Assembly (NCBI GenBank): GCA_965199045.1
Contig: CBDAQL010000004.1
Location: forward strand, 627 to 64,626
Source of the DNA: Acidocella sp.
GTDB taxonomy: Bacteria > Pseudomonadota > Alphaproteobacteria > Acetobacterales > Acetobacteraceae
Reading direction: 5' to 3'
Length of the DNA stretch: 64,000 nucleotides
Both the position numbers and the translations under genes were made by a program. Shown here one piece after another: positions 14,788 to 53,060 of this stretch (its first letter is position 1; each line of letters starts with the position of its first letter). Under the pieces are notes generated by a model. It ran no database searches. It saw only the letters and a program-made list of their open reading frames with translations, and was not told where the DNA came from.

Positions 14788-14796
14788 CATGGCACG

Positions 14797-29451: not shown

Positions 29452-30243
29452 CTATATTGTTGCGGTTTCCGTGCGAGCAGCCGCCATCTCATAGGTCGGC
29501 GCCGTATTCCGGTCGCTGCCGCGCGCCGCAATCGCTGGGTTCTCGCCAAGCTTTCGAGCGTTGTATACGGCTTGCGTACGGTTTGTCGCGCCCATCTTTC
29601 GCATAATGTTGCGAACATGTACCTTTACAGTACTCTCGCTCATTTGCAGCTCATGGGCGATGATCTTATTCGCTTTGCCCTGGCGTAAACAGGCAAACAC
29701 GTTGAGTTGTCGCGACGTTAGATCCATGCCCTGCGGCAATCGCACAGCGCTCTCCGTCGGCATGAATGTATCGGTGAGAATAACGTCCACGGGCACGACA
29801 ATGCCACCTGCGGCCACGTATCTCACGGCGGCGGGAACAGTCGACATGTCGATGGTTCGGGCTAATATCAGGCCACGCGCGCCGGCACGTAGCACATCTC
29901 TAACGAGTGCGGAATGCGGCGTCGGCGTATCCAGCAGAACGATGACGGGATGATCGATATAAGCCTGTCTAAGCGCGGTAACTTCTTGATTGATTAGACG
30001 TTCGATCAACGCCTTTTCATGTGCGTAATATATAATTACGTCCCAATCGCTTTCTGTTGCGGTAATGCAATCCCGGATCGAGTTGAAAGATGTGAAGGTA
30101 ATATCTTCATCGATCGTGCTGGTCGCAACGATCAAGCAATGACGTGTTAAGGCGAAACTATCAATGAGTGCAACGTGAAGATGCCGATTTACGTGCAATC
30201 TATTACCGTTCTGTATGTTGTTGTTGTGTAATGATTTTGACAC
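29452..30243 (-). CDS. LuxR/NarL-family regulator with atypical receiver domain
   Basis: C-terminal LTSRQLNVFACLRQGKANKIIAHELQMSESTVKVHVRNIMRKM; receiver-like N-terminus lacking the canonical Asp. Confidence 0.88.
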   Translation of the reverse strand: MSKSLHNNNIQNGNRLHVNRHLHVALIDSFALTRHCLIVATSTIDEDITFTSFNSIRDCITATESDWDVIIYYAHEKALIERLINQEVTALRQAYIDHPVIVLLDTPTPHSALVRDVLRAGARGLILARTIDMSTVPAAVRYVAAGGIVVPVDVILTDTFMPTESAVRLPQGMDLTSRQLNVFACLRQGKANKIIAHELQMSESTVKVHVRNIMRKMGATNRTQAVYNARKLGENPAIAARGSDRNTAPTYEMAAARTETATI

Positions 30244-30407
30244 GATATTCCCCGCTTCTTAAGGTATGTCAATCTATTTGGATGGTCCCCAGGCTAGCCA
30301 TTTATTGCCGCAGGCGAATGGATATTCGTTAAGCGTGACATGCGATAACGCATCAGCATGCCTCATGTCTATAAAATTATACCTATTTTAACAATTTTTT
30401 TGACGCA

Positions 30408-31850
30408 TTAATAAAACACTTCAAGGGATTTGCGACGTTTACCACTTTGGCGCGAAGTTTTTAACGTTTCGATTGAAAAAGACGGTGAGAATTCCGTACG
30501 CGAAATAATCGAAGATACAAGTAATGACAATAGCAGGTAGAAATCAGGAGAAGTTATAACCGGCTCAGAGATAAGCCCGGCCACAATGGTTGTGATAATG
30601 GCAGCAGATATTCCACTTATGGTACGTCTTGACCCTATCTCGACGTTTAGTTTTGAAATTTTCTTCAACTCTAGGTATATCAGGGTGCCGAACCATAGAA
30701 ATCCGCAAATTCCCCACACGCCGATAGAAGCGCAAAGTCCCGGCAACAGGCTGGATGACCGGTTGCTGCCCCAACCCACTCCTAAACCGGAAGTTTCAAG
30801 CATTTCGTGAATGCTGTCAGAATCCGCAGCGGAACGATCACGGTAGGATGATGACTGCGATTTGCCCAAGGTTGAGTTGATGATGGTCGAAGCCTCGGTT
30901 GCTACACCGGGGGCGACCGCTGGTCCGATTAAGCAGGTGCCGCCCACTAATGTTGATATGATGATTGTTGCGACTACGACGCGCTGCCGAAATTTTGCTG
31001 AGGCGGAAACGATCGAACGTAGAATAAGTAAGCCGGCCATGACCCCCAAAGTTGCATAACCCGTGGTGGACGTGCTGAGGAGAGTGACAGATAAGCCGAG
31101 CCAGAATACCACCTGCAGGAAACGCCGCTTGTCGCCATTCAAAATCATCGAGGCGGAGGCTGCTACAGGCGCACATAGATAAGCGGCGAGCGATGAGGGT
31201 TCGCTGAAAGATCCGTTCAGGCGGATAAGCGAGCCAACCGTTTCCTCCGATAGTTGCGCCCATCCTGGGTTGCTTAGAAAGAAAGTGCTAGGATACCAGA
31301 GGTGGAAGGTATTTCCGGCAAATTGCCAAATCGCCACAAAATCGGCGATGAGACTCGCGGATAAGTAGCAGTCAAACAGTTTGTTGATTTGCACGCCTGG
31401 TCGCGCCAGATAAATCGCCGCAGCCACCGTCAGCATTGCGTCTGATAACAAATACATATCTTGAGTATAATTTCCAGCGTTGGGCGCCAACGGCAGTCGA
31501 ACCAGGAACAGAGCGGTTTTTTGCGGCCAGACCAGGACTTCTCCTTCAAATAGCCGGGGCATTACGAATGAACTTATCAAAGCGCCGGAAATTACCAATA
31601 TGAAGGGCGTCAGAAGTGTTAGCGCCGGACGCGCGGCAGGATAGCGAGCGCCGCAAAAAATACTGACCAGGAAGCACATGACGAACAAAGAGCAAGGCAA
31701 CAACGCAGGTGTAATGCCGGCCCCGCCAAAGACCGCGATCGCGGCGGCGGAAAAGACCGAGTAGTAAAAAACCAGAGCCAACAGCGTCCCTGGACGGTTG
31801 GCAACGAACATGCAAATTGGGATCAGAACTGTGCCGATTAACGGGATCAT
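30408..31850 (-). CDS. wzy: Wzy-like polymerase / O-antigen ligase-family membrane protein
   Basis: About 12 TM segments; RLNGSFSEPS and STSTTGY motifs, a periplasmic loop with DR, GLGVGWG; located in a polysaccharide locus. Confidence 0.65.
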   Translation of the reverse strand: MIPLIGTVLIPICMFVANRPGTLLALVFYYSVFSAAAIAVFGGAGITPALLPCSLFVMCFLVSIFCGARYPAARPALTLLTPFILVISGALISSFVMPRLFEGEVLVWPQKTALFLVRLPLAPNAGNYTQDMYLLSDAMLTVAAAIYLARPGVQINKLFDCYLSASLIADFVAIWQFAGNTFHLWYPSTFFLSNPGWAQLSEETVGSLIRLNGSFSEPSSLAAYLCAPVAASASMILNGDKRRFLQVVFWLGLSVTLLSTSTTGYATLGVMAGLLILRSIVSASAKFRQRVVVATIIISTLVGGTCLIGPAVAPGVATEASTIINSTLGKSQSSSYRDRSAADSDSIHEMLETSGLGVGWGSNRSSSLLPGLCASIGVWGICGFLWFGTLIYLELKKISKLNVEIGSRRTISGISAAIITTIVAGLISEPVITSPDFYLLLSLLVSSIISRTEFSPSFSIETLKTSRQSGKRRKSLEVFY

Positions 31851-32130: not shown

Positions 32131-33240
32131 ATGGAGCGAACAGCTCAGCCTAGGCGGAACAATCCAGGCCTAACACCAATATCGTGGCATGTCATAAGTT
32201 TCGTCGCGGCGGTAACGCTAAGCGCCTGTTCCGGGCAGCCCTTGACGTCTCACGCCGTGCCGTCGTCGGCAACCGCTGCCACCGGCATAGCATCTCCCGT
32301 GGTTTCGTCTGAGAGTGAGACATTGCCTTCCGACACTCAGGCCGGGCTAACGCCATATCGTCTTGGGCCGAGCGATGTTATCGCGATTACAATTTACCGG
32401 CATCCGGAGCTTTCGGTCCCGCAGAACAGCGGAGGCGCTGCCAATGGCGGTGTCAGCATCAACAATGACGGCACGGTTGATCTGTCGCTTGTCGGCAACG
32501 TCGATCTCGGCGGCCTGACGGTAGCCGAAGCGCAACAGGCTCTGCAGCGCGATTACTCCAAATACATTCAGCAGGCGGATGTCGCCGTTCAACTCGTCTC
32601 ACCAAAAAGCATGCGCTATTATTTGTTGGGCGACTTTTCTCAACCGGGCGTCAAAATGTCCGACCGGCAGCTGAGCCTGTTGGATGCCTTATCCCTCGGC
32701 GGCAGTCTCGATATCACCAATGCGGATTTGTTTCAGGCCTATGTCGCCATGGGCGCCCAGAAGCTGCCGTTGGATATCCGGGCGCTGCTCGTCGACGGTG
32801 ATATGAGTCAAAATATCATGCTGGCGCCAGGTGCCACGATCGTGATCCCGCCGGCCTCCGATGAGAAGGCGTTTGTGTTTGGTTCGGTAAGCAAGCCAGG
32901 CGCGATCGACTTTGAGGGAGGTGGCTTGTCCGTATTACAGGCGCTCAGCGAGGCCGGGATGGATCTCAACAGTTATAGCGCTTCTAAGCTCTCGCAGGTG
33001 CGTATTATTCGGTCGCACGGCGCCGGCGCGGACTTCATTGTTGTGGACGCGGAGAAAATTCTGGATGGGCAAGCGGCTCCGTTTGCACTGGAGCCCGGCG
33101 ATGTCGTTTTTGTTGCACCGACCACAGTCGCCAATTGGAACCAGGCACTGAACATGTTGCTGCCAACGCTGTCGACGATATCCGGGCTGCTCAACCCGTT
33201 CGTATCCATCAAATACCTGTCCCAGTCGCAACGGAATTAG
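32131..33240 (+). CDS. wza: Polysaccharide export lipoprotein Wza
   Basis: Lipobox LSAC, YRLGPSDVIAITIY, SLBB repeats and C-terminal WNQALNMLLPT. Confidence 0.9.
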   Translation: MERTAQPRRNNPGLTPISWHVISFVAAVTLSACSGQPLTSHAVPSSATAATGIASPVVSSESETLPSDTQAGLTPYRLGPSDVIAITIYRHPELSVPQNSGGAANGGVSINNDGTVDLSLVGNVDLGGLTVAEAQQALQRDYSKYIQQADVAVQLVSPKSMRYYLLGDFSQPGVKMSDRQLSLLDALSLGGSLDITNADLFQAYVAMGAQKLPLDIRALLVDGDMSQNIMLAPGATIVIPPASDEKAFVFGSVSKPGAIDFEGGGLSVLQALSEAGMDLNSYSASKLSQVRIIRSHGAGADFIVVDAEKILDGQAAPFALEPGDVVFVAPTTVANWNQALNMLLPTLSTISGLLNPFVSIKYLSQSQRN

Positions 33241-33245
33241 ATATT

Positions 33246-35732
33246 ATGACAACGCAGTTGCCGGATCTCAAACTAAACGACCATTACGAGACAGTCGATT
33301 TTGGACAGTTTCTCGGGGCCATGCGGCAGCGCTTGGCGACCATCGCCATCTTCATCGGGATCGCCGCTTTCATGGCCTTGGCGCACGTGCTTTTTGCAAC
33401 GCCGCAATTTACCGCCCAGGGCGTATTGTATCTTGGTGAGACCCAGAACACCAGCGACAGCAGCGACTTGTCAGGTGCGGTCAATCTCTCCGCCTATGCG
33501 ACGCAAAGCGACGTCGAGACCCAGATCGGCTTGCTGACGACAGGCACGCTGATCCAGCGTGCGGTGTTGGAGACCGGCTTGAATACCACCTTGCGCAGCA
33601 CCGGAGCGCCACCCCTGACCTACTGGCGGTGGCGCCTGTTCTGGCATGCGAGCACCGATGTGTTCACGCCTGGGCCGCAAGACCTGGAGGTTGTCAATGC
33701 TACCTTGGCCGGACGTTTTCGCATCGTCACCGGCCCCGACAACACCTACAAGCTATACGGCAAGGGCAAGCTTTTTGGCGACGGCAAGCCGCTGTTAATT
33801 GGCGTGATTGGCCTGCCGGAAGCTGTTGGCGGTTCCTCCATTACGGTAATGCGCGGAGCGGCCGGATCAGCCGTGTCGGATAGCCCAACCGCGAGCACGC
33901 CGGCGGATGTTCCTGACATCAAACCTGGCGTCAGCTACGATCTGGACGTGATCCCGCCCGACGTAATGGCGGACAATGTTCTGACAAGGCTGAGCGTGAC
34001 CGCCGGCGGTTCCCCGGACCAGCCGACACAGCTCGCGACCCTGCAATTGCGCTGGCAAGACCCGTATCAGGCGAAGCAATTCATCAACGCGCTGATGTAC
34101 GATTATATCGCGACCCAGTTGCAATGGAAAACGGAGGCGGCGTCAGTGACAGAGAATTTTGTCACCGGACAGATTGCGGCGGTGGCCCGGCGGCTGGCTC
34201 AGGCCGATGCGCAATTGGCAGTCTTTCAGTCGCAAACCGGCATTCTGGACCCGCAACAAAGTGCCATGCAGGCGGCGCAGATGACATCGCAACTCGACAG
34301 CCAACGGACCGCGGTGCTGCTGCAGCAGCGCTCGTTTCAGCAGCTGCACGATGCCATTCACGCCACCCGGCCGCAAGGCGATCCCTATCTGATCAGTGCC
34401 AATAACGACCCCGTCCTCTCCGGCCTTTCATCGTCGTTAGCGAACGCGCAGTTACAGCTCCGGCAACTCAGCTCGGAATATACTTCGTATTCGCAGGACC
34501 TTTCGGTGCAGCAATCTCAAGTTGGCGAAATCCGTCGTTCGATCGCAAACCTGATCGAGAATGACCTGGCGCAGACGACCCAGAACCTGGCCGATATCGA
34601 TACGGTGATCGCTTCCTACAACAAACGACACAAGGAACAGCCGGCGGATGCATTGGAGGTGGCGGCGCTCACACGGACTTCGAATCAGCTTGGGCAGTTT
34701 TATTCGCTGCTGACTGAAAAGGCGGAACAGGCTCAGATTTCCAAGGCGGCAACGATCATTGCGACGCGAATTGTAACCCCCGCGCACCTGCCGCACGCAT
34801 CGACATCGCCAAAGGCGGGCATCACAGTGGTTGCGGGCGCCGTTGCGGGAATGTTTCTGGGGATAATTTTCATATTCCTGCGGCAGACACTCTCAGGCCG
34901 CTATGAGACCGAGGAACAGATCCGGCATATGATCAAGCTACCGGTTTATGGCAAGGTGCCGGTGCAGAAATTGCTGGGCGGCAGCGCGTTCTTCGGTCCG
35001 GATACACCGAACGCCTTTTCCGAATCCTTCCGCCTGATCAACCGCAATGTCAGCCGGATCTCGAACGGAAAAAACGCGGTTGCAACAGTAATCCTGATTA
35101 TCTCCGCGAATAAGCGCGACGGCAAGACGACGGTGGCCGCTAATCTGGCCAAGACTTTTGCCGATGACGGCAAGCGGGTGGTAATGCTGGATTGCGACTT
35201 CTACCTCAGCCGCCTGCAGAAACTTAACGAAATCGCCCAGGCGCCGGAGTCGGGCGGCGTGCCGGTCGCTGGTGGCCGGCCCGAACTGCGGCAATGGCCG
35301 AATGAGAACTTCTCGATTTATAATGCCAGCGCATTGCCAAAACGTGGCCGCAGGCTGGACGAAGCCGCCATTGCGAAAGTGATCGGCCAATTGAAACAGG
35401 AGTTTGACTACGTAATTCTGGATAGCCCGCCGCTACCGATCATATCCGATGGGTTGGCGCTTGCGGGACTATCCGATATGATTTTATCGGTGGTGAGCGT
35501 TAAGAATACCGAACGCCGCACCTTTGAGTATCATACCGAGTTGCTGGCGGGCGTTGATTGCCCGCACGGGGTCATCATCAACGGTGCCCAAGGTGCCAAT
35601 TATGCAGAAACAGACGCTTATTTCATGGGCGTAAATCTGGAAAGAAAACAGTTACGAGGATGGATAAGCGCCGTCAGCGAATGGATAAAAGCGGCCGGCT
35701 CCGCGCATACGACCCGTTCGCCGGCCGAATAG
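33246..35732 (+). CDS. wzc: Polysaccharide co-polymerase / BY-kinase Wzc
   Basis: Two TM segments around a coiled-coil periplasmic region; ESFR, Walker A ANKRDGKT, LDCD and ILDSPP. Start refined to ATG 33246. Confidence 0.9.
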   Translation: MTTQLPDLKLNDHYETVDFGQFLGAMRQRLATIAIFIGIAAFMALAHVLFATPQFTAQGVLYLGETQNTSDSSDLSGAVNLSAYATQSDVETQIGLLTTGTLIQRAVLETGLNTTLRSTGAPPLTYWRWRLFWHASTDVFTPGPQDLEVVNATLAGRFRIVTGPDNTYKLYGKGKLFGDGKPLLIGVIGLPEAVGGSSITVMRGAAGSAVSDSPTASTPADVPDIKPGVSYDLDVIPPDVMADNVLTRLSVTAGGSPDQPTQLATLQLRWQDPYQAKQFINALMYDYIATQLQWKTEAASVTENFVTGQIAAVARRLAQADAQLAVFQSQTGILDPQQSAMQAAQMTSQLDSQRTAVLLQQRSFQQLHDAIHATRPQGDPYLISANNDPVLSGLSSSLANAQLQLRQLSSEYTSYSQDLSVQQSQVGEIRRSIANLIENDLAQTTQNLADIDTVIASYNKRHKEQPADALEVAALTRTSNQLGQFYSLLTEKAEQAQISKAATIIATRIVTPAHLPHASTSPKAGITVVAGAVAGMFLGIIFIFLRQTLSGRYETEEQIRHMIKLPVYGKVPVQKLLGGSAFFGPDTPNAFSESFRLINRNVSRISNGKNAVATVILIISANKRDGKTTVAANLAKTFADDGKRVVMLDCDFYLSRLQKLNEIAQAPESGGVPVAGGRPELRQWPNENFSIYNASALPKRGRRLDEAAIAKVIGQLKQEFDYVILDSPPLPIISDGLALAGLSDMILSVVSVKNTERRTFEYHTELLAGVDCPHGVIINGAQGANYAETDAYFMGVNLERKQLRGWISAVSEWIKAAGSAHTTRSPAE

Positions 35733-35889: not shown

Positions 35890-36726
35890 CTATGTTTTGC
35901 GGTAGACTTTGATGTATTGAATCTGCATGACCTGCGGATCAGTCAAGCCAACGATCGGCCATCCGCCGCCTAGAGCCAGATCGACGATGACAGCCATGGG
36001 TTGGCGAAATTCCGGCAATGTTGGTGTCGACCAATAGGGAATGCGGTTAAAGTAGTAGGTGGTCCGCTGCGGTTCGATTAGGATTCCGAAATTGTTAAAC
36101 TGGCTCGACAGAATACCCCTGGATACGCTTACCACATGGCTGCGGCTTAAATGATCGACATTGTTTTTCCAAAGATGTTCGGTTGACCGGTAACTGGCTG
36201 GAAAAGCACCATAGAATTCGATGACGTCGAGCTCTGGCGCGGTTCCGGTATCGCCGGCGCTGACTAGCCAGAAGGCCGGCCAGACGCCGTGGCCAGCAGG
36301 CAGTCGCGCCCGCATTTCGAAATAGCCGTATTCCTGGGCGAACCCGCGCGGACCGACACCCTTGGCAGATTTCGAGCATAATAAACCTGAGTGCCATTGT
36401 CCTTTCGAATCTTTGTAGGCGGTAATGTTCAGGCCGTTCGGGCCCCGCGAAAACGCGCTACCGGGGCCTGGATTATCAAAGACGGCGTCACCGAAATCAC
36501 CGTTCCAGGGCGTATGGGCGATCCATCGCGTGGCCGGCCCGGTGGCGGAAATATCAAGGTTGGCAAAGTCTTCGTTGAAGCTGACTGTATAGTCTGAGAG
36601 ATCCAGTGCCGGCTTTTGCGCCCCGGATGCTGACATAGACGCATAACCTACCGCGACCGTGATGGCAGCTGCTATAGAAATTACCGATAAACGCCAGCGA
36701 GAAATCCGAACCTTTGCATGAGACAT
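35890..36726 (-). CDS. Secreted GH16 glycoside hydrolase (ExsH-like glycanase)
   Basis: Signal peptide; YGYFEMRARLP, GVWPAFWL and catalytic ELDVIE (ExDxxE). Confidence 0.88.
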   Translation of the reverse strand: MSHAKVRISRWRLSVISIAAAITVAVGYASMSASGAQKPALDLSDYTVSFNEDFANLDISATGPATRWIAHTPWNGDFGDAVFDNPGPGSAFSRGPNGLNITAYKDSKGQWHSGLLCSKSAKGVGPRGFAQEYGYFEMRARLPAGHGVWPAFWLVSAGDTGTAPELDVIEFYGAFPASYRSTEHLWKNNVDHLSRSHVVSVSRGILSSQFNNFGILIEPQRTTYYFNRIPYWSTPTLPEFRQPMAVIVDLALGGGWPIVGLTDPQVMQIQYIKVYRKT

Positions 36727-36838: not shown

Positions 36839-37822
36839 CTAGAGAATTGCAGACGATCTGACCAGTCTTTCAAACGTTTGTTGATAATAAATTTTGCGGT
36901 GGAGAAATAGTTTGTCGCGCAGTTTTCGTAACCGGGCCCGCGTTTGTAACGCATCAAGCTGTTGCCGGCTATATTGCCGGATCGGGAGACCCAGCTTCTG
37001 CAACGGCGCGAAGGCATTGATATAGGTTTCGTGATAAGGATGAAAAGGCACCGTCCAGGGCTTATCTCCACCGGCAAAATGCAAAATCTGCGGTGGCATC
37101 TTGCATTTCATTCCCCACTCCAAATACGAGGTTGCAAAATTCCATTGCGGAGCAAGACGTACCCAACGGTGCTTCGCAACCGCGTTTAAAGCACTCTGGT
37201 CATGGTAGAGACAGCGCGCGGTATTATTAATAAAATAGGTGAACGCATCTGCGCAGACATCCCGCCAGGTCTGGGTGTCGGCGAGCAGGACGCCAGAACT
37301 GAAATAGCCGGCGTCGTGATCAAGCCCAAGGCCATCGAAATAGGCGCGGGTTTGCCGGCCGACTCGACCAAGCTCACGACGACGGAAATAATACCGATCT
37401 TCGGCGGCGCCGATAAAGCCCTGCGGCAGCGAAGCTTCAAGAAGTTTTAGAGGGTCTCCCACCGGCCAGGTATCACCGTCAAGATATAGGATGCGCTTGT
37501 AGATGTCCGGAACCACATCGAGCATGAAAAATCGGCCGAGCGCTGAGATTGGAACATGCGTTTTGTTGAATGCTTGATGATTGAAGCCGCTGAAATAATC
37601 GAAGCTGAGGTGATCCAGATGAATGCTATGGGATGATGCAAACCCCGCCATACGATTAAACGCGTCCACCGGAATATTGGTCGTGACGATCCTGACATCG
37701 GCGCGTGCGGGGGGCACCTTTCGCCTAATTTCTAGAGCGGCGGCCAATGTCGGTAATGCAAAGTCCAGATCGGTCACAAAGAAAATCGCGCGGTCCGGAC
37801 CGGATTTTTTGATTACGTTCAT
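36839..37822 (-). CDS. Glycosyltransferase family 8
   Basis: RILYLDGD, YFSSGVLL, HDQSALN and ILHFAGGDKPW. Confidence 0.88.
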   Translation of the reverse strand: MNVIKKSGPDRAIFFVTDLDFALPTLAAALEIRRKVPPARADVRIVTTNIPVDAFNRMAGFASSHSIHLDHLSFDYFSGFNHQAFNKTHVPISALGRFFMLDVVPDIYKRILYLDGDTWPVGDPLKLLEASLPQGFIGAAEDRYYFRRRELGRVGRQTRAYFDGLGLDHDAGYFSSGVLLADTQTWRDVCADAFTYFINNTARCLYHDQSALNAVAKHRWVRLAPQWNFATSYLEWGMKCKMPPQILHFAGGDKPWTVPFHPYHETYINAFAPLQKLGLPIRQYSRQQLDALQTRARLRKLRDKLFLHRKIYYQQTFERLVRSSAIL

Positions 37823-37976
37823 GGTATATGATTTGCTCGGTTTTGGATGATCAGATCAAGCCGGGACGAAGCCATCGCGTATCATCAATTAGAAGGATAG
37901 GCCTAGTATTATCAAATATAGGTATTACCCATTTGTTCGCTTGCGCACGCCATGGAATCGTCTCAGGAACGCTAGT

Positions 37977-42367: not shown

Positions 42368-42813
42368 GCGCAAATTTTTTGTAGTCTCACAATTCACGTT
42401 AGCGTCTCGCAATGGTGGTGGCGGCTGGCTCGGCGCCGTGTTCTGGCGCCCGTGATAATGCGGCAGTTTTGTTGTTATGCGGCGCGTATCCAGCGGAGAT
42501 GGCCACGATATCAGGCAACATAAAAAGCTCCCGGCGCTTTAGTTGGATGTAAGTCTGGTTGAAACAATGAAGCTGGATCCACGAGATACGACGAAATGCG
42601 ACGTTATTGATGCCGGAAATTGTCGGGTTTCTTCAACTTGACCAAAAGGAGAGGTTTCACGGCAATTTTATCTTAAGAGGTAGGCTTATACCCATCGGAC
42701 ATTCTCTCTAGACGAAAGGCGAACCGAGCGTCCTCAGCCTCTGCGGACCGTGAGAACGTGCGCTCTAGATCCTGCATCGCAGAGGTAACTTCGCAGATTG
42801 ATGATACCGTAGT

Positions 42814-42837
42814 GGCGGCAAAACGAATTTCGCCGCC
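42814..42837 (-). terminator. GC-rich hairpin with UUCG loop just downstream of cimA
   Basis: Minus strand GGCGGCGAAA-TTCG-TTTTGCCGCC, a 10-bp stem; no clear U-tract follows. Confidence 0.45.
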
Positions 42838-42860
42838 GGCGCGTTGGCTGTGTTTTTTTC

Positions 42861-44498: not shown

Positions 44499-44501
44499 GG
44501 C

Positions 44502-47330
44502 CTATACGACCGCAGGCGCGGGTGCTGGGGCGCCGGACAATCTTTCCGATTGCGTTGCTTGCGATAGGTGACTGGTCTGCTGGCTTGCGGCCCGCGAATT
44601 GATCGTGCAGGTCAGATCGTTTGCAGGCACTTTGGCCAACGCGTCGTGACGCTTGAGAAGGACCTCGATCTGTTCTGATAAGAAAACGGCATGCTGATCG
44701 GTCAAAATTGAAAGATGATCACCCTCGGATTGTATAATTTCAAAGCCGCCACTGAAGAGATTGCGCCATCCATGGGCGCGGTCGTAGCCAGGCAGCATAT
44801 CCACATCGGCCTTGGCGCGTATGAGCACGCCCTTCGCATCGAGCGAGGTTGGCCGCCACCGCGCGCCGATCAGTTTCGCCATTCGATAGACGATCCACAT
44901 CCCGACCGGATTACTTTTGCTATCGAAATAGCCGGAGGGCCGGTCGGCCTCGGTCTCGTTCCGGGCGGTGTGCTGCCGGCGGTGACTGATGATATCGAGA
45001 CGATATCCTATGGCGGTCGGAATAGACGATACCTGCCAGCAAATAAGGCGCCAGGCCTGCGCGGCGGCCTTGCCAAGACGCGCCATGGAGGCACCCGCAT
45101 CGGCAGGCCGCAGGGATAGGCCGCTGATGGTTTTCCATCCGCTGCGAATGACGGTTGCAACCTTGCTCAACCCGCTCCAGGTAAAGGCCCGCGAGTCAAT
45201 AAGGAGCAGGAAGGCAGCGTGCCCGCCGGCGCGCTGCAACGCATGCGCGGCTTCAAATGCGATTTTTCCGCCGAGCGAATAACCGACGATAACGCAAGGC
45301 GCCTTGCCGGCGTGGTCGATTAGCGCGCGGCCGAAGGGTTCGCTAAGCTCCTCCATGGTCGGCATATTCTTTTTATCCGCGATCCCGACCGCCTCGATCC
45401 ATTGCACCGGCAGCAATGCGTCGATTAGAAACACGCTCCGATTTTCAGCGATCAACTCGGCCAGCCGATATTCGTCTGGCCGCGCACCCATGAAATAGAT
45501 CGGCAAGCCGTTATTGCCACTTTGCAGAGGGATCACCTGCGTCATACCCGTGCTCAAGCGGTGCCGGGATAGCTCCGCCGCCAGCGCCGCGATGGTTGGC
45601 CGCTGGAAGAACACCGGTATACTCACACGCATGTTCAACGCCTTGTTGATTTCGTTGATCATGCGCAGCGCTAGCAGCGAATGACCGCCTAAATCGAAAA
45701 AATTATCCTGCGGCTCAACCTCGGGAAGCTCCAGCATTTCCATCCAGATGCCGGCGAGCAGTTGCTCAATGGGGGTGACGGGTTTGGCATATTCCGTGTT
45801 TGCTTGCGCCACCCGCAGCTGCGGTGCCGGCAGCGCCTTGCGGTCAACCTTGCCGCTTGGCGTTAAAGGAAAAGCGATCAGCGGCACAAACGCAGCGGGG
45901 ATCATGTAGCCCGGGAGCCGTTCGCCAAGGAACTGACGAAGCTCCTGGGTTGAGATATCCTGGCCGTGGGCCGGCACGAAATAAGCGGCGAGATTTTGCA
46001 TTCCGTCGGTCCCGGCATAGGCGATGGCGACGCTTCGTTCGATATCCGGATGGCTTAGCAGAACACTCTCGATCTCCCCGAGCTCGATGCGATGACCGCG
46101 TATTTTGACCTGATGATCGATGCGTCCCAGAAACTCCAGCTTGCCGTCGCCCAAACGTTTTACCAGGTCGCCGGTGCGGTACATGATCGCCCCCGGCTCG
46201 GCGAAGGGGTCTTTGATGAAGCGTTCGGCATTCAGCTCCGGCCGGTTGAGATAGCCGCGTGCAACCGCGCCGCCGCCGATATAAAGCTCGCCCGGAACCC
46301 CCAATGGGACCAGCTGGGACGCGCTGTCCAACACGTAAAAGCGGGTATTAGGGATGGGCCGTCCGATGACCACTGGGCAGCCTGTTTCTACCTTGGCGAC
46401 CGCGGACCATACGGTGGTCTCGGTGGGTCCATACATGTTCCATAGCGTGCGGCAACGGCTGAGCAGCTGTTCGGCCAGGACCGTACCCCAGGCTTCGCCG
46501 CCGCAAAGGATTTTCAGATCCGCGGCGCCTTGCCAACCGGCGTCCAGCAGCATCTGCAAGGTGGCCGGGGTTGCCTGCATAACGGTGACGCCGGCGTCTT
46601 CGATCAGCTGCCGCAATGCGCCGCCATCACGCGCGGTTTCGCTGGAGGCAATAACGGCGGAGCCGCCAGTGCTCAGTGGCAGGAAAATCTCCAGCAGCGA
46701 GATATCGAAAGCTATGGTGGTAAGCGCCAGCATTCTGTCGGTGGCAAGAAATCCAGGCCGGCGCTGCATCGCGGTAAGCATGTCGACGACACCGCCGTGC
46801 TTGACCTGAACGCCCTTCGGGTTGCCGGTCGAGCCGGACGTGTAAATCACATAGGCAAGATTATCGGCTGTGAGATCGCTGGACGGCGCATCACCGTTTG
46901 GCGCCGAAGCAGCCTGCAGGTGCTGCTCCGCAGCGCTATCAAAAATATCGTCCACCAGCAGCAGCCGGGCCTTGCTTGCCGGCAATAAGCGTTGCGATTT
47001 GCGTTCGGTAAGCACGGCCAGCGGTTTTGCATCTTCCAGCATGTAGGCGAGACGCTTATCCGGCAAAGCCGGGTCCAGCGGCACATAGGCGCCACCGGCC
47101 TTCAGCACACCCAGCATGCCGGCAATCATGTCGGGCGACCGGTCGATACAGAGCCCGACCAACGTTTCCGGTCCCACGCCAATCGCGCGCAATTCCTGCG
47201 CGATCGCTTCGGCGCGCTGGTTCAGCGCGCGATAGCTCAGCCTGGACGATCCAAAGCTTAGCGCCTCGGCATCGGGGGTACGTGATAACTGAGCTTCGAA
47301 CAGTCTATGAATAAGCTTCATCTTCTTCAT
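44502..47330 (-). CDS. NRPS A-PCP-TE module (glycine-type A domain)
   Basis: YTSGSTGNPKG, AFDIS, YGPTE, YRTGD, QVKIRGHRIELGEIE, PSGKVDR; PCP LGGHSL; TE GYSLGG. Confidence 0.93.
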   Translation of the reverse strand: MKKMKLIHRLFEAQLSRTPDAEALSFGSSRLSYRALNQRAEAIAQELRAIGVGPETLVGLCIDRSPDMIAGMLGVLKAGGAYVPLDPALPDKRLAYMLEDAKPLAVLTERKSQRLLPASKARLLLVDDIFDSAAEQHLQAASAPNGDAPSSDLTADNLAYVIYTSGSTGNPKGVQVKHGGVVDMLTAMQRRPGFLATDRMLALTTIAFDISLLEIFLPLSTGGSAVIASSETARDGGALRQLIEDAGVTVMQATPATLQMLLDAGWQGAADLKILCGGEAWGTVLAEQLLSRCRTLWNMYGPTETTVWSAVAKVETGCPVVIGRPIPNTRFYVLDSASQLVPLGVPGELYIGGGAVARGYLNRPELNAERFIKDPFAEPGAIMYRTGDLVKRLGDGKLEFLGRIDHQVKIRGHRIELGEIESVLLSHPDIERSVAIAYAGTDGMQNLAAYFVPAHGQDISTQELRQFLGERLPGYMIPAAFVPLIAFPLTPSGKVDRKALPAPQLRVAQANTEYAKPVTPIEQLLAGIWMEMLELPEVEPQDNFFDLGGHSLLALRMINEINKALNMRVSIPVFFQRPTIAALAAELSRHRLSTGMTQVIPLQSGNNGLPIYFMGARPDEYRLAELIAENRSVFLIDALLPVQWIEAVGIADKKNMPTMEELSEPFGRALIDHAGKAPCVIVGYSLGGKIAFEAAHALQRAGGHAAFLLLIDSRAFTWSGLSKVATVIRSGWKTISGLSLRPADAGASMARLGKAAAQAWRLICWQVSSIPTAIGYRLDIISHRRQHTARNETEADRPSGYFDSKSNPVGMWIVYRMAKLIGARWRPTSLDAKGVLIRAKADVDMLPGYDRAHGWRNLFSGGFEIIQSEGDHLSILTDQHAVFLSEQIEVLLKRHDALAKVPANDLTCTINSRAASQQTSHLSQATQSERLSGAPAPAPAVV

Positions 47331-50300
47331 CCACCATCCAGGCTGATAGGAGTTGCTGCCGTTCCGCCTCGGTCAGCATGGGCAATTCATTTAGTTTTTG
47401 GTCCGGGTCGGCGGCGGCAGCTTGCAAAAGCACCGTCAGATGGCCCAGCAGACGTTCGATCCGGTTGGCGTCGAACAGATCCGTGCTGTATTCGACTTCG
47501 GCCGTGATTTTGCTTCCCGCATCGATGAGGTTGATCGTCAAATCGAATTTCGAGGTTTTGGAATGCGCCAGCAATGGCTCCGTTATAAGCCCGGGGAAGC
47601 CAATGAATTGCGGGTGGTCGTCGCGATCCCGCCAGTTCAGCATAACCTGAAAGACCGGCGCGTAACTAAGATCCCGTTGCGGCCGAAGGGCTGCGACAAC
47701 CTCACTGAACGGCGCCGCGCGATGGGAATAGACAGCCGCAACATCGTGACGCACCTGCGCGAGGAAGTCACGGAATGTGGTGCTGGCATCAGGCTGGGTG
47801 CGCAGCACATGGGTTTCGAGTAGAAAACCGATTAATGGGCGCAGTTCCGGCAACTCGCGATCGGCAATGGGGATGCCGATTAGAATATCGTCCTGCATGG
47901 TATAACGGTACATCAGCGTGCTCAGGCCCGCCGCGAATACGGCAAACATTGTTGCCTTGAGCTGCCGGCATAATTCTCGAACATCTGCCGCCAGCGCCGG
48001 TTCTAATTCAAACAGCTGCTTATGGCCGCGGAAGGAGCAGATTGCCGGGCGCGGCCTGTCCGTTGGTTGATCGAGCAATGCAGGAGAGCCGCGCAAACGG
48101 ACGCTCCAGAAAGCGAGCGCGTCATCGAAGTTCTGTTCTCGCTGCCACACCGCGTAATCGCCGTGCTGAATTGGCAAAGGCGGCAGCGCCGGAGGCTCGC
48201 CTTTTATGCCAGCTTCATAGAGCGCCCCGAGCTCACGCCAAAGAACACCGATCGAGGCGCTATCGCAAATAATATGGTGCAACATCAAAATCACAGCGTG
48301 ATCGTCAGTGCCGATTTCCACGATTGTGACCCGCAGCCCCGGCTCGACACCGAGATGGAATGGCCGGACCGGCTCCTCCGTCAACAAAGCCGCTAATTTG
48401 GCGTCGCGTTGATGTGCCGGCAGCTGCAACAGGCTGACCGTTTTTAATTTGATCGGCCAGCTTTCATGAACTTCGGCTTCCGGCCGGCCTTTCTTCAGCG
48501 CGATCGTGCTACGCAAAATTTCGTGGCGTTCGATAATGGTATTGAACGCATCCTGCAGCGCCGCGATGTTCAACTTGCCCTTGAGCCGCACCGCTTCGGC
48601 CTCGTTATATACCGGCGCTCCGGTGTTGAATTGCGCCATGAAAAAAATGCGCTCCTGAGCTATTGTGAGCGGGCAGGAGCGGCCGCGTGCGGCTACCGGA
48701 ATGCGTTTTTGAACAGCAAGCGGACTGGGTTGGGGCGAAGCCGGGTGTGCTGGTCTGTTCAGATGCTTTCCAATAACCTGAGCCAGTTGGCCAACTGTCG
48801 GGTTTTCGAAGAAATCGGTCAGTGAAAGCACTACCGATTGGCGGTCGCGCAACCGCGAAAGGAACTGGATCGCCTGCAAGGATTGCCCGCCACAGGCGAA
48901 AAAATTGGTCTCCGGATCAATATCCAACGGGCCCAGAAGTTCCTGCCAAAGCTCACCGACCAGGCTTTCAAGTTGCCGGCGGCCTGCCTGCTGCACCGCT
49001 GACGTTGCTGGTGCGTCTGTTGCTTGCGCGGCTGTTGCCTGCGCGTCTGTTGCCTGCATGCCCGGACCAACCTGCTTTGCATGCCTGCCGGCGCGCTGTT
49101 CCGCGTCTTCCACCAGATGCAGGCGCTGGATTTTTCCGGAAGGTCCCTTCGGTAGATTTGGGACCAGGTAAATACGCGTCGGCGTTTTGAAAAAGCCCAG
49201 ATTATGCTCACAATGCGCGAGCAATTCGCGTTCATCGCAGTTGGCCCCGGCCCGCAGTACTGCGTACGCCACCAAGTCCTCGCCGACATACCGGTCCGGA
49301 ATGCCGACGGCGGCTGCTTCCAACACGGCCGGATGCATTTCCAGTACTTCATCGATCTGCTTCGGCGCGATGTTCATGCCGGCCTTGATGATCAATTCTT
49401 TGACCCGTCCGATCAGGAACAGGTAGCCGTCTTTGTCTTGATAACCGAGATCGCCGGTATGCAGCCATCCCTCAGGGTCCAGCGCCGCCGCGGTGCCGAC
49501 GGGGTCATTGTAATAGCCTTGCATCATCCCATCGCCGCGAAAAAGAATGTCGCCGGTGGCGCCCGCCGGTAGCAGGCTACCGGCGCGATCGACGATTTTT
49601 ATTTCAAAGCCCCAGGGGAGCCCCGGCGATCCTATCTTGTTCTGCCCCGGAGGTGCTGGATTTGAGAAAACATTGCCGGCTTCTGAGCATCCCATCGCCT
49701 GGATCAGCGGCAGATCAAACTTTACAATGAATTCGCGATGCAGGGACGGGGATAACGGGCCGGAGGAACTCCGAATAAAACGAATGCGGCTAAATGCGGC
49801 ACTTCGGCTGTCTGCCCGTGGATCTTTCCAATCCAGCAGCTGAGAGACAATGGTGGGCACCACGGCCGACCAGGTACAACCGTAATCGCCAAGCAAATCC
49901 CAATATTCAGCGATGGCGAAGCCGTGCGGAACCACTACCGATCCACCGCTCATCAACGTCGGGATCAATGTCACGCATTCCGCATTGATATGGTACATCG
50001 GTAGCACCAGGAGAGAGCGATCGGATCGTTCGAGCTGGTGGGCCCGGATAGAGTTTCTGCCATGCGCCAGAATGGACTTATGGGTGTGTACCGCCCCTTT
50101 GGGCTGGCCGGTGCTTCCAGACGTATAAATAATCATCGCGGCATCATTCGCCTCGATGGCTGGCGCGTCTCTCTTCGAATGACCAGTGCTGCCTAAGCCG
50201 GCAGGCCTATCAACACTGGCCGGCACAACGATGATTTGCGATTTGATAAGTTTAAGGACTTCCGCGATCAGATCTTGGTATTTTTCAGAGACGAATACAA

Positions 50301-50697
50301 CGCTCGCTTGACAATGATCCAGCGTATAGGCCAGCTGTGAAAGGCCGGCGCGGACGTTCAAAGGCACTACGACAAAACCGCAATACATGGCGCCCAGAAA
50401 CAGCTGGGCGGTATGCACGCCATTATCCATCATCAGCGCGATCCGGGCCTGCGGTTCCAAGCCAAGGCTAAGAAGCGACGGATAAAGCAGATCAGCTTGT
50501 TGCTTTAGTTCGTTGAAAGTAAGTTGATGTCCGGTCTCAGGGCTCACTAAAAAAACATCGTCGGGCTGCAATGTCGACATTGCATTTAGTAATTGCGGTA
50601 CCGTATCAAGATGTTCTATGCCCGCTGCAGTCATGGGGTGTCTCTTCATTGTCCGATAACGATTTTGCTGGATAAGCGGCAACTTAACGCTGTGCAA
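47305..50697 (-). CDS. Acyl-CoA-ligase-like adenylation-PCP-condensation starter protein (start may be ATG 50634)
   Basis: YTSGSTGQPKG, LPMYHINA, GWLHTGDLG, GRVKELIIKAGMNI, PSGKIQR; PCP CGGQSL; C domain LTIAQER..HHIICDS..SKFDL. Confidence 0.92.
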   Translation of the reverse strand: MHSVKLPLIQQNRYRTMKRHPMTAAGIEHLDTVPQLLNAMSTLQPDDVFLVSPETGHQLTFNELKQQADLLYPSLLSLGLEPQARIALMMDNGVHTAQLFLGAMYCGFVVVPLNVRAGLSQLAYTLDHCQASVVFVSEKYQDLIAEVLKLIKSQIIVVPASVDRPAGLGSTGHSKRDAPAIEANDAAMIIYTSGSTGQPKGAVHTHKSILAHGRNSIRAHQLERSDRSLLVLPMYHINAECVTLIPTLMSGGSVVVPHGFAIAEYWDLLGDYGCTWSAVVPTIVSQLLDWKDPRADSRSAAFSRIRFIRSSSGPLSPSLHREFIVKFDLPLIQAMGCSEAGNVFSNPAPPGQNKIGSPGLPWGFEIKIVDRAGSLLPAGATGDILFRGDGMMQGYYNDPVGTAAALDPEGWLHTGDLGYQDKDGYLFLIGRVKELIIKAGMNIAPKQIDEVLEMHPAVLEAAAVGIPDRYVGEDLVAYAVLRAGANCDERELLAHCEHNLGFFKTPTRIYLVPNLPKGPSGKIQRLHLVEDAEQRAGRHAKQVGPGMQATDAQATAAQATDAPATSAVQQAGRRQLESLVGELWQELLGPLDIDPETNFFACGGQSLQAIQFLSRLRDRQSVVLSLTDFFENPTVGQLAQVIGKHLNRPAHPASPQPSPLAVQKRIPVAARGRSCPLTIAQERIFFMAQFNTGAPVYNEAEAVRLKGKLNIAALQDAFNTIIERHEILRSTIALKKGRPEAEVHESWPIKLKTVSLLQLPAHQRDAKLAALLTEEPVRPFHLGVEPGLRVTIVEIGTDDHAVILMLHHIICDSASIGVLWRELGALYEAGIKGEPPALPPLPIQHGDYAVWQREQNFDDALAFWSVRLRGSPALLDQPTDRPRPAICSFRGHKQLFELEPALAADVRELCRQLKATMFAVFAAGLSTLMYRYTMQDDILIGIPIADRELPELRPLIGFLLETHVLRTQPDASTTFRDFLAQVRHDVAAVYSHRAAPFSEVVAALRPQRDLSYAPVFQVMLNWRDRDDHPQFIGFPGLITEPLLAHSKTSKFDLTINLIDAGSKITAEVEYSTDLFDANRIERLLGHLTVLLQAAAADPDQKLNELPMLTEAERQQLLSAWMVDEEDEAYS
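49000..49059. repeat. Four imperfect 15-bp tandem repeats encoding the (QATDA)-type linker between A and PCP
   Basis: Units tgacgttgctggtgc / gtctgttgcttgcgc / ggctgttgcctgcgc / gtctgttgcctgcat. Confidence 0.75.
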
Positions 50698-50886
50698 TGT
50701 TCAATATGGCAGGCCATTCTGTCAACGAACCAAAATGCTTAGAAATACATCCCCAAACGATCACCCTACCCAAATGGGTGACGGCCGATGGACGGACTGC
50801 TTAACGGCCATTCAGTGACCTTGGAAAATAAATACGAAACAGCAACGGCGGCCTTACACCGGGGCGACCGTCGCGCGTATCGTAAA

Positions 50887-51576
50887 TCATGAGATCGGTA
50901 AAATAAGCCCGGAGTGTATGATATCACCGATTACGACAAAACTGCCCGCCAAGTGGAACGGATCAAAAAAAGGCGTTGATAATGAAGGTTTTGGAATGGC
51001 GCGGAACGATCCGGACGTGATGTCGATGGCAGTGACTTCAACATCCGTGAAGTCGAACCGGAATTTAAGTAAAGGATACAGGCATTTGAAAATCGTCTCC
51101 TTGACGGAAAAAATGATCGTCGTCAGCAATGGTTCGCTGATCGGTAGCCTTGATAGGTTTTGGTATTCGAGGGGCGTTGTGATCAGCGGCGCTATCTCTT
51201 TGGCGGTTGCGGATGACATTAGTGTTTCAGTGTCCAGGCCAAGGCTTCTTGCGCGTGACTCCCAGGCAACAGCTGCAAAGGCGAAGCCATTTGAATGTGT
51301 TATGGATCCGACAATACCAGACGGCCATACCGGACATCCGTCTTGCCCCGACGCAACGTTTAGCGCCGCTGCGCCTAATCGGATCAGCGCTTCCTGCGCA
51401 CAAAGTCGGCCGCTCACGTAATCCGCCTGTCGCCGCCCGACAGCATCTTTAAGCCGGGACGGCAGTGGGACTTCCGCCGGTAAAGTTTTTAATTCCCAAT
51501 ATCTTATACCGGTATGGACGACGAAGTCCGGAAACAGCTTTGGAATATCGCTTGGTGATAGGCTCAACTTGTTCAT
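50887..51576 (-). CDS. 4'-phosphopantetheinyl transferase (EntD/Sfp-type)
   Basis: RRQADYVSGRLCA, PVWPSGIVGSITHS, LGLDTE and FSVKETIFK. Start refined to ATG 51576. Confidence 0.9.
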   Translation of the reverse strand: MNKLSLSPSDIPKLFPDFVVHTGIRYWELKTLPAEVPLPSRLKDAVGRRQADYVSGRLCAQEALIRLGAAALNVASGQDGCPVWPSGIVGSITHSNGFAFAAVAWESRARSLGLDTETLMSSATAKEIAPLITTPLEYQNLSRLPISEPLLTTIIFSVKETIFKCLYPLLKFRFDFTDVEVTAIDITSGSFRAIPKPSLSTPFFDPFHLAGSFVVIGDIIHSGLILPIS

Positions 51577-51941
51577 CGTATTTCGCTTCAAACGAGCAGA
51601 TATTATTATAGCTGCAACCGCATGTTTTAAGACCCATCTCGCTGATGCGCGATAAATGAAGGAGAGGCAAGGGGTGCCGGGCGCGCGGCCCGCGCCATCA
51701 AAGCTACCAAACCTTAGGTCCGGCCTGCGCGCCCATCGCATCAATCACCGGTGCCCATTAAGTATGCTTTGCCTTGCACGCGGCCGTCTGTTTTGCGCAG
51801 ACAATCTACTTGTTTTGCGCGCTCAATCTGCCGGAGTCGCAGTAATACTTTTAGGCAGCTTGCCTGCCATTATCGAATACGTAGGCTGATTAAGCTTCTT
51901 GGTAAATCGCGAAACCTATTCAGTTCGGAATTCATACCGTA

Positions 51942-53060
51942 ATGTTTGAACAGCGCAGACATATTGCCACGCTGGATGGTCTACGCGGCTTTGCCGCCTT
52001 GATTGTCGTGTGGCTCCATATGACGACCGAGGCATTCAAAGTCAGCACGCCGTATCGTGGCTATCTGGCGGTCGATTTTTTCTTTATCCTCAGCGGTTTT
52101 GTTATCGCGGGCGCCTATGAGCAGCGCCTTCTGGTCGGCATGCCGTTTTCGGAGTTCGTGCGGCTTCGGCTGATCCGGCTTTACCCGCTAATTGTGCTGG
52201 CGATCGTCTGCGGTTTTAGCGTCAAACTCACGGCCTTCTATCTATTGCCGCATCACGGATATGTTTGCGACAATGTTTCAAGCATTATTATTGCAGGTAT
52301 TCTTGGCATTTTTCTGCTACCGTCCCATGTCGCGATCAACCCGGACTTTTTCCCGCTGGACAGCCCGCTTTGGTCGCTGATGTTCGAGCTTTGGGCGAAC
52401 CTGCTTTATGCATTCATTGCCAGCCTGGCAAATGCCCGTCAGTTGCGGGCGGCGGTCTGGGCGTTGGCAATCTGTGGTGGAATTGGGCTGATCCCCAGCG
52501 TCAGGCTTTTCGGATATTTGCATGGCGGTCATACGATCCCCGAAATGGGCGTCGGCTTTGCCCGGGTGGGCTGGGGATTTTTCGCCGGTGTGGTCTTACA
52601 TGGTCTTCTAACGCCGGCGCGCGTCGCACGGATCCCGCGGGTTCCATTTCCCATGCTTTGCATTGTATTGTTGCTCGCAATCTCACCAGGACCTGCGTTG
52701 GGCCCGTTTTACGATGTGTTCGCGGCAATCGTGATATTACCGATTATCGTAGCGCTCGGCAGCAGGGACGCGCTTGGTCCAAGATGGCGTGGCCCTGCCT
52801 TGTTCTTCGGCGCAATTTCATATCCGGTCTACGTGTTGCACTACGCCACGTTCATTCATTTCAATCATTTCAGGGGTCATTCAAAGCCATTGACCTATGC
52901 GATGTTCGTTGCGGCCATGTTGCTTGTCGTCGGTACAAGTTATCTCGCTTTGCGGTTTTACGATGAACCGATCCGCCGCTGGCTGCTGCGCGTGACGCGT
53001 CCGGTACCATATGCCGCGTCGCGCCAAAGCGCCTATCCGGAGCCCGGCGTTGCCGACTAG
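51942..53060 (+). CDS. Acyltransferase family 3 (OafA-like, membrane domain only)
   Basis: LDGLRGFAA..V..H, VDFFFILSGFVI, RLIRLYP, PLWSLMFE and ISYPVYVLH. Confidence 0.9.
   Translation: MFEQRRHIATLDGLRGFAALIVVWLHMTTEAFKVSTPYRGYLAVDFFFILSGFVIAGAYEQRLLVGMPFSEFVRLRLIRLYPLIVLAIVCGFSVKLTAFYLLPHHGYVCDNVSSIIIAGILGIFLLPSHVAINPDFFPLDSPLWSLMFELWANLLYAFIASLANARQLRAAVWALAICGGIGLIPSVRLFGYLHGGHTIPEMGVGFARVGWGFFAGVVLHGLLTPARVARIPRVPFPMLCIVLLLAISPGPALGPFYDVFAAIVILPIIVALGSRDALGPRWRGPALFFGAISYPVYVLHYATFIHFNHFRGHSKPLTYAMFVAAMLLVVGTSYLALRFYDEPIRRWLLRVTRPVPYAASRQSAYPEPGVAD

Follow-up and report, generated by a model that had tools for sequence, protein, structure and literature searches.

What a nonribosomal peptide synthetase (NRPS) assembly line might be doing amid genes for the synthesis and export of a polysaccharide is the question raised by a locus of the alphaproteobacterium Acidocella sp. 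The locus occupies positions 29452-53060 of a 64,000-nucleotide stretch of DNA (here termed the window, whose numbering is used throughout), which lies on an 82.8-kb contig (C4) of a genome, apparently that of a cultured strain, of 3.50 Mb in four contigs. Taken as a whole, it is best explained as an exopolysaccharide (EPS) locus bearing a cassette that makes an acyl-glycyl unit for transfer to the glycan, a reading to which we assign a probability of just under one-half. Genes were called from six-frame open reading frames (ORFs) together with Pfam and NCBIfam profile scans, and all 14 genes of the locus, among them every gene named in an earlier first-pass annotation of this DNA, were recovered in place with the expected domains.

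The thiotemplate half of the locus, comprising the genes for a phosphopantetheinyl transferase (PPTase), NRPS1, NRPS2, and a citramalate synthase (CimA), lies wholly on the minus strand. NRPS1 (47305-50697), for which the probable start is M22 (at ~50634) and the database version is a protein of 1109 aa, combines a ligase-type loading domain, a peptidyl carrier protein (PCP), and a condensation (C) domain. The gene for NRPS2 (44502-47330), which overlaps that of NRPS1 by 17-26 nt, encodes a glycine-type adenylation (A) domain, a further PCP, and a thioesterase (TE). The Pfam AMP-binding, PP-binding, Condensation, and Thioesterase domains, along with the adjacent Sfp/EntD-type PPTase recognized by Pfam and NCBIfam (50887-51744), mark this as a type I NRPS. 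The core motifs are intact, namely, HHIICDS in the C domain, the serines of the PCPs (in GGQS and GGHS), and GYSLGG, Asp, and GDH in the TE, which in the proteobacterial clade also has a ~110-aa lid that includes the conserved stretch SGYFDSxGxP.

The nature of the starter unit can be approached through the loading domain of NRPS1. Its nearest solved relatives are the oxalyl-CoA synthetases (OCSs; 6qjz [E = 9e-81], 5ie0, and 8aff), followed by 4-coumarate and malonyl-CoA ligases, and fatty acyl-AMP ligases are absent from its near solved matches. A fatty-acyl starter, as in a lipopeptide, is ruled out by this OCS-like ligase and by the C domain, which is not of the lipo-starter kind; instead, it is a standard LCL domain, most similar to those of Txo1/2, TycC, and DhbF. 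Eight residues of the oxalate pocket have been described for AtAAE3 and LsOCS, of which Ser289 and His319 (AtAAE3 numbering) are the OCS-specific oxalate binders (PMC8905533). When these positions are mapped onto NRPS1 by alignment, Ser289 is kept (RSSSGPL), His319 is replaced by Asn (SEAGNVF), His216 is likewise replaced by Asn, and Ala313-Met314 is replaced by Gly-Cys. The loss of His319 places the domain outside the OCS (AAE3) family, and the pocket is predicted to be roomier and polar, since it has Asn for both His residues and Gly-Cys for Ala-Met. Oxalate itself is disfavored as the starter by the replaced OCS-specific His and the enlarged pocket. Of the 33 family members in which all eight positions are readable, 32 share the pocket string I-N-S-S-G-(S/C)-N-K, irrespective of whether a gene of the HMGL type is adjacent, and in light of this near-invariance the entire NRPS1 family probably loads one and the same acid.

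The extender unit can be predicted more directly. Motif mapping of the A domain of NRPS2 yields the code DILQLGMVWK, which conforms to the glycine-type DILQLGxxWK, and among solved structures the domain is most closely related to LgrA module 2, DhbF (5u89), and AB3403, all of which are glycine-activating. Both lines of evidence agree with the glycine unit put forward in the first-pass annotation. Across phyla, ~18 family members have this code either unchanged or with a conservative substitution at position 7 or 8.

Clues to the identity of the acid come from the cimA gene (42861-44498), the start of which lies 4 nt past the stop codon of NRPS2. Its product passes the TIGR00977 equivalog model for citramalate synthase, with 527 bits against a cut-off of 450 over residues 13-535. 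It has no match to the LeuA_dimer domain (PF08502) at an E value of ≤0.001, a domain that most homologues (55-68% identity) possess, and its regulatory domain has diverged. This is the sole gene in the genome to pass TIGR00977, and, of 24 further genomes in the genus, 23 have no such gene, which rules out a housekeeping role in the isoleucine pathway; in the exceptional genome (G166), the gene lies beside a decayed NRPS1. Further, among 27 NRPS-bearing genomes, the distribution of such enzymes is complementary. In the 11 genomes with an HMGL-type gene adjacent to the NRPS, no other gene exceeds the TIGR00977 cut-off, and in the 12 without such a neighbor, there is always a cimA elsewhere, scoring 540-775 bits; two genomes clearly depart from this pattern, and two more are contig-edge cases (Fisher p = 2e-5). 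The adjacent enzymes stem from three lineages, TIGR00977-type, LeuA-type, and Leptospira-CimA-type, with the latter two being truncated versions that match only the catalytic part of their respective models. Such convergent recruitment of enzymes beside a ligase with an invariant pocket points to a 2-alkylmalate starter, and the pattern as a whole supports the presence of a dedicated 2-oxoacid:acetyl-CoA condensing enzyme that is tied functionally to the NRPS. Among such acids, citramalate is the likeliest starter here, in keeping with the earlier suggestion of an acyl starter possibly derived from citramalate. Taking these findings together, the product is likely to be citramalyl-glycine (C7H11NO6) or a 2-alkylmalyl-glycine, and we regard this chemistry, predicted from sequence, as having moderate-to-good support.

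Clustering of the neighboring ORFs of 40 loci of the NRPS family, followed by annotation of the recurrent clusters, recovers HMGL/cimA-type genes in 15 loci, MOP flippases in 9, Wzc-type kinase domains in 7, two clusters of GT4 glycosyltransferases in 7 each, epimerases and polyketide synthase (PKS) modules in 6 each, and UDP-glucose/GDP-mannose dehydrogenases, Wzz-like proteins, and Lys/Orn-oxygenase-like flavoproteins in 5 each. AsnB is found in 4 loci, heptose-pathway SIS, GHMP kinase, and nucleotidyl transferase proteins in 3 to 4, and Wza, AAA_22 EPS ATPases, and pectate-lyase-like proteins in 3 each. Apart from the MOP flippases, no receptor or small-molecule transporter recurs among the neighbors of the 40 loci. 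A recognizable polysaccharide gene occurs within 10 kb of the NRPS in 27 of these loci. For comparison with background, 19 loci from 18 genomes were set against 36 arbitrary, preselected 20-kb regions of the same contigs (17 of the 18 genomes). ORFs matching a polysaccharide panel of other genomes, itself drawn from the flanks, make up 40 of the 357 ORFs in the NRPS flanks versus 4 of 654 in the controls (odds ratio, 20; p = 5e-15). Likewise, at least two polysaccharide ORFs are present in 8 of the 19 loci versus none of the 36 controls (Fisher p = 6e-5). The linkage between the NRPS family and polysaccharide genes is hence nonrandom and crosses phyla.

The same association is visible in the individual loci. 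Homologues of CimA with 86%, 72%, and 69% identity (L001, L002, and L004, respectively) are encoded next to the same NRPS pair, which in these three loci lies beside Wzx, GT4, GT8, GH16, Wzc, Wza, and Wzy-like genes in differing orders. Homologues of NRPS1 with 67%, 63%, and 60% identity define three further arrangements: L084 (Wzy-like gene, PPTase, NRPS1, NRPS2, cimA, and flippase), L085 (an L084-type core followed by GT4, an acyl carrier protein [ACP], a DltB-like MBOAT, and a DltD-like gene), and L086 (Wzz, kinase, Wza, GerE, PPTase, NRPS, and epimerase). Thus, in metagenome relatives at 60-86% identity the juxtaposition persists despite rearrangement of the order. A PPTase gene adjoins the cassette in L002, L004, L084, L085, L101, L102, and L105. 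Beyond these, full-length relatives with 41-60% identity (mostly 47-60%), identified by scanning one genome per species, come from Alphaproteobacteria, Acidobacteriota, Verrucomicrobiota, Planctomycetota, and Binataceae, and include a protein of the cultured acidobacterium Terracidiphilus gabretensis S55. Many relatives are fused into a single ligase-PCP-C-A-PCP-TE protein, and in four loci (L031, L021, L018, and L019) the NRPS lies amid glycan genes in long same-strand runs. Within the genus, NRPS1 orthologues are found in 5 of 61 genomes and, at the family level, in 1 of 151, namely, this genome alone, a rarity that indicates that the cassette is accessory.

Several of the related loci show variations of their own. 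The ACP of L085 is an 84-aa carrier that, after the flippase and GT4, is accompanied by the DltB-like MBOAT (TIGR04091, 171 bits) and by a protein with weak DUF1574 similarity (L085:16466-19099), a set that looks like a Dlt-type module. In T. gabretensis S55 (L016:8326-18600), a truncated LeuA-type synthase is encoded with a fused NRPS of 2005 aa (ligase-PCP-C-A(Gly)-PCP-TE), directly followed by a YdjC/HpnK-like sugar deacetylase and a GT4; by analogy with the logic of Nod-factor or bacillithiol synthesis, the deacetylase would yield a free sugar amine. In six loci from other phyla (L011, L012, L018, L019, L022, and L054), PKS modules (KS-AT-...-ACP) take the place of the TE after the ligase-PCP-C-A-PCP line, and these loci sit inside GT4/UGDH polysaccharide loci. 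Degraded or incomplete versions are also seen. In L105 (G166:C12:355000-374999), from the same genus, cimA and NRPS2 are intact, NRPS1 is broken by stop codons, and the flippase is truncated; the same genome has two further intact NRPS1 paralogues elsewhere. In L102 (G216:C71:6086-11276), from a metagenome-assembled genome, cimA and NRPS1 are immediate neighbors that no A-PCP-TE gene separates, which could be due to a deletion or to an assembly artifact.

The polysaccharide half of the locus has the parts of a Wzx/Wzy-dependent pathway. A Wzx/MOP-family flippase is encoded at 37941-39458 on the plus strand (Polysacc_synt_3, 2.6e-46); it belongs to a subfamily other than that of the cassette-linked flippases of L004, L084, L085, L101, and L102. 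The probable Wzy polymerase (30408-31850, minus strand) is a multipass membrane protein of 480 aa with no Pfam match of its own, which we assign to the O-antigen ligase/Wzy_C superfamily via homologues (47-54% identity), some of which contain Wzy_C (PF04932) or are annotated as O-antigen ligase family proteins; its orthologues adjoin the cassette in L002, L004, and L084. The export pair consists of the outer-membrane protein Wza (32131-33240, plus strand; Poly_export, 2.8e-20, and SLBB_2) and the copolymerase/tyrosine autokinase Wzc (33135-35732, plus strand; Wzz, GNVR, and P-loop kinase domains; TIGR01005). To these are added a GH16 glycanase in an ExoK-like position for an EPS locus (35890-36726, minus strand; Glyco_hydro_16, 5e-11), in the place of which L001 has a Bac_transf priming transferase; a GT8 glycosyltransferase (36839-37822, minus strand; 2.3e-25); and a GT4 glycosyltransferase recognized by Pfam (39624-40775, minus strand), which has an 80% orthologue in L001 and ends the same-strand run that starts at the PPTase. 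At the far edge, a LuxR/GerE-type regulator (29452-30243, minus strand; GerE, 1.6e-19) shows weak matches to CsgD, EpsA, and NarL, and a 57% homologue of it adjoins the cassette in L004. As the first-pass annotation had noted, 29452-53060 has neither a siderophore (TonB) receptor nor any efflux pump or resistance gene in the profile scans. More generally, the window does not have the makings of a siderophore cluster, with no TonB-dependent receptor, transporter for uptake or export, or iron-chelating monomers being found in it.

Based on the above, we propose the following scheme. CimA would condense pyruvate and acetyl-CoA to citramalate, which the OCS-like domain of NRPS1 would adenylate and load onto its own PCP, and the A domain of NRPS2 would load glycine. 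The C domain would then form citramalyl-glycyl-S-PCP, from which the TE would off-load the unit onto an acceptor at the cytoplasmic face of the membrane, either a sugar in the lipid-linked repeat or its nucleotide-sugar precursor. The decorated unit could then be flipped by the MOP flippase, polymerized by Wzy, and exported by Wza/Wzc. The transfer of the unit onto the polysaccharide is plausible but unproven. A glycan target is favored by the flank enrichment, by the same-strand runs of L031, L021, L018, and L019, by the Dlt-like set of L085, by the deacetylase and GT4 that follow the NRPS in T. gabretensis, and by the finding that no exporter of small molecules recurs. As a tentative generalization, we suggest that Wzx/Wzy-type polysaccharides with a (2-alkylmalyl)glycyl substituent might exist, undescribed, across phyla, with the TE acting as a transferase to a sugar amine or hydroxyl and with the portable cassette bringing its own precursor synthase, its PPTase, and often its own flippase.

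A number of observations weigh against this proposal, and some of them would equally befit a free secreted small molecule. The TE retains the ordinary hydrolase/release triad of Ser, Asp, and His. Within the clade closest to this NRPS, nothing but cimA, the PPTase, and a MOP flippase accompanies it throughout, and in L084, L101, and L102, where the flippase occurs with or without a Wzy-like gene, there is no glycosyltransferase within 8-10 kb. Such minimal flippase-NRPS-cimA-PPTase cassettes and a standard hydrolase triad are consistent with the release of citramalyl-glycine by hydrolysis and its export by the MOP-family protein, in which case the proximity to EPS genes would reflect co-regulation or a shared biofilm physiology. 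Possible roles for the free compound are those of a metal chelator of the alpha-hydroxycarboxylate type, a signal, or a solute against acid or osmotic stress; the adjacent LuxR-type regulator and the frequency of the family in bacteria of acid soil, peat, and moss, where metal chelation would be useful, also favor this reading. Nevertheless, no TonB receptor, ABC/MFS exporter, or uptake system recurs among the neighbors, which are instead glycosyltransferases, sugar-nucleotide enzymes, Wzc, Wza, and flippases; Polysacc_synt_3 flippases are generally known to serve lipid-linked glycans rather than small acids; and the NRPS is placed inside same-strand runs of glycan genes in several phyla. On balance, we consider a free small molecule somewhat unlikely.

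Other adverse points concern gene content and sampling. There is no initiating phosphoglycosyl transferase in 29452-53060 (three Bac_transf genes are present on contig C2 of the same genome) and no sugar aminotransferase or deacetylase in the window that could make an amine acceptor. The acyltransferase-3 (AT3) at the edge of the locus has no orthologue in any related locus, and the decarboxylase next to cimA adjoins the cassette only here and in L001, being otherwise not conserved. No polysaccharide gene was recognized in 13 of the 40 loci, four of which are contigs of <10 kb, and the related loci are not phylogenetically independent. In T. gabretensis, the compact set of HMGL-type gene, NRPS, YdjC/HpnK-like deacetylase, and GT4 suggests a different end product, namely, a small glycoconjugate, in which the GT4, along with a deacetylase in some lineages, would build a (2-alkylmalyl-glycyl)-aminosugar glycoside or a lipid-linked monosaccharide. 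This would resemble the logic of bacillithiol/mycothiol synthesis (GT4, deacetylase, and ligase) or of HpnI/HpnK-modified hopanoids. The GT4 of the window does close the same-strand run from the PPTase and has weak matches to BshA and MshA, but the scores of 27-29 bits are no better than those of any GT4, and most loci also hold Wzc, Wza, Wzy, or Wzz genes for polymer export; we consider a product of this type decidedly unlikely. Finally, the locus could merely be two accessory modules gathered on a single low-GC island with no functional connection, as might be suggested by a GC content somewhat below that of the flanks, by the scarcity of the cassette in the genus and family, and by the shuffled gene order among relatives. 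This explanation is very improbable in light of the cross-phylum enrichment over same-contig controls and the survival of the linkage through rearrangements. The data as a whole hence suggest, but do not prove, carrier-protein-dependent decoration of a glycan by an unstudied NRPS family.

The first-pass annotation regarded the AT3 membrane acyltransferase (51942-53060, plus strand; Acyl_transf_3, 2e-20), which is divergent and lies beyond the PPTase, as capping the system. This view does not hold: the lack of orthologues in related loci rules out the AT3 as a conserved part, and its membership in the system is doubtful. The AT3 and the group II pyridoxal phosphate (PLP)-dependent amino-acid decarboxylase (40949-42412, minus strand; Pfam/NCBIfam) are lineage-specific extras. 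The 448 nt between cimA and the decarboxylase gene (42413-42860) hold neither an ORF nor a convincing promoter or terminator, and L001 has a comparable gap of ~540 nt; a promoter/terminator scan of 39.3-53.2 kb gave counts at the level of shuffled sequence. A 51% paralogue of the decarboxylase is encoded elsewhere in the genome (C3:668812-674433) along with a MetY-like enzyme, a 260-aa protein of no known family, and a FATP-like acyl-CoA synthetase. In L001 (L001:2427-4546), the 233-aa gene product following the decarboxylase is homologous to this 260-aa protein, and the two may constitute a separate unit.

With respect to the wider context, the left flank (hydantoinase A/B) and the right flank (nitroreductase and aromatic meta-cleavage genes) are both unrelated to the locus, within which the GC content dips to 0.49-0.58 versus 0.60-0.63 in the left flank. 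The nitroreductase flank resembles that of L085; no homology was found in support of synteny, and the resemblance is thus coincidental. As for plasmid status, visual inspection of C4:64-83 kb revealed no genes for replication or partition, and the two ends of the contig have no overlap. The window showed neither exosortase nor PEP-CTERM genes. Three GGDEF-EAL proteins, the sensor domains of which are GAF, GAF, and PAS, respectively, are encoded in the 20 kb upstream of the island (window 10168-22451) and may provide cyclic di-GMP control of the polysaccharide. Elsewhere in the genome (C2:488905-501437) lies a paralogous chromosomal EPS locus with no NRPS, which encodes a flippase of the L084 type (44%), Wzc (39%), Wza (54%), a Wzy-like protein (50%), GH16 (54%), a GT8, and a Bac_transf priming transferase. 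In view of this NRPS-free paralogue, the island is best read as a second Wzx/Wzy-type EPS locus, of the kind usual for the genus, that bears a portable thiotemplate cassette of PPTase-NRPS1-NRPS2-CimA.

The NRPS family is common in bacteria of acid soil, peat, and moss, including Acidobacteriota, Verrucomicrobiota, Planctomycetota, and acidophilic Alphaproteobacteria, and DNA near-identical to that of the locus is present in many moss metagenomes. When 31-mers were sampled from the cimA-NRPS2 region (42861-47330), ~75% of them were present in about 18 moss metagenome runs. Moss/plant metatranscriptome contigs of 150-250 nt match Wzc, GH16, cimA, NRPS2, and AT3 with 99-100% identity; these point weakly to in situ expression of both halves of the island, and contigs this short do not address co-transcription. 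In such habitats, exopolymers influence metal binding, water retention, and plant association. If the unit is indeed polymer-bound, this would be the first known complete NRPS, with C-A modules and a TE, that supplies a polysaccharide substituent, and an acidic, metal-binding acyl-amino-acid group would join the known chemistry of slimes and capsules. Genome-mining tools should then treat many "orphan NRPS" clusters as glycan-tailoring genes rather than antibiotic genes.

Literature searches found no description of a pathway with this gene set, in agreement with the first-pass annotation; several parallels are nevertheless offered by known systems. In function, the locus comes nearest to carrier-dependent decoration of envelope polymers. 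In the DltABCD system (D-alanylation of teichoic acid) and the AlmEFG system (addition of glycine to the lipid A of Vibrio cholerae), as proposed here, an adenylating enzyme loads a small unit onto a carrier for an envelope glycopolymer. In contrast to these, the present locus has two full NRPS modules with an amide-forming C domain and a TE, the unit is predicted to be an acyl-amino acid rather than a single amino acid, and the presumed target is a Wzx/Wzy polysaccharide. Moreover, the window encodes no AlmG-type transferase and no stand-alone carrier, DltB MBOAT, or DltD, look-alikes of the latter three being found only in the relative L085. In assembly logic, a counterpart is AB3403 of Acinetobacter baumannii (C-A(Gly)-PCP-TE; PDB 4zxh), which is also a minimal line joining an acyl starter to glycine with release by a TE. 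However, its starter is a fatty acyl group furnished by a separate ligase and ACP, and its operon includes an RND pump, whereas here the ligase is fused, OCS-like, paired with CimA, and situated in a polysaccharide locus. The enzymes AtAAE3 (5ie0-5ie3), LsOCS (6qjz), and Pcs60 (8aff), as the nearest solved relatives of the loading domain, share with it the oxalate-binding Ser; unlike these plant and yeast OCSs, it is fused to a PCP, would load a carrier rather than CoA, and has the family-defining His replaced.

Acyl-amino-acid or carrier-borne acyl genes recur in the EPS loci of environmental Gram-negative bacteria. One example is the N-acyl amino acid synthases (NASs) linked to PEP-CTERM EPS loci (Craig et al. 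2011, cited in PMC8776678). These differ from the present system in having a GNAT-like NAS, a stand-alone ligase and ACP, and a long-chain fatty acid starter. Thiotemplate or carrier-dependent enzymes that supply a nonsugar acyl part are also found in surface-polysaccharide loci, as with the RkpA/WcbR type I PKS genes in the capsule loci of Sinorhizobium and Burkholderia and RfbK-O of Vibrio cholerae O1, which is involved in the N-acylation of perosamine with tetronate. In these cases, the enzymes are PKSs or an ACP and ligase with no C-A NRPS module, and the substituent or anchor is a different one. The succinoglycan exo locus of Sinorhizobium meliloti (ExoP/T/Q/F/Y, the GH16 enzyme ExoK, and the AT3 proteins ExoH/ExoZ) has no NRPS, cimA, or PPTase, and the island differs from it in having no priming transferase of its own. 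In other respects, the glycan half of the island is built from the same parts as the exo locus, namely, Wzc, Wzx, Wzy, Wza, GH16, and AT3.

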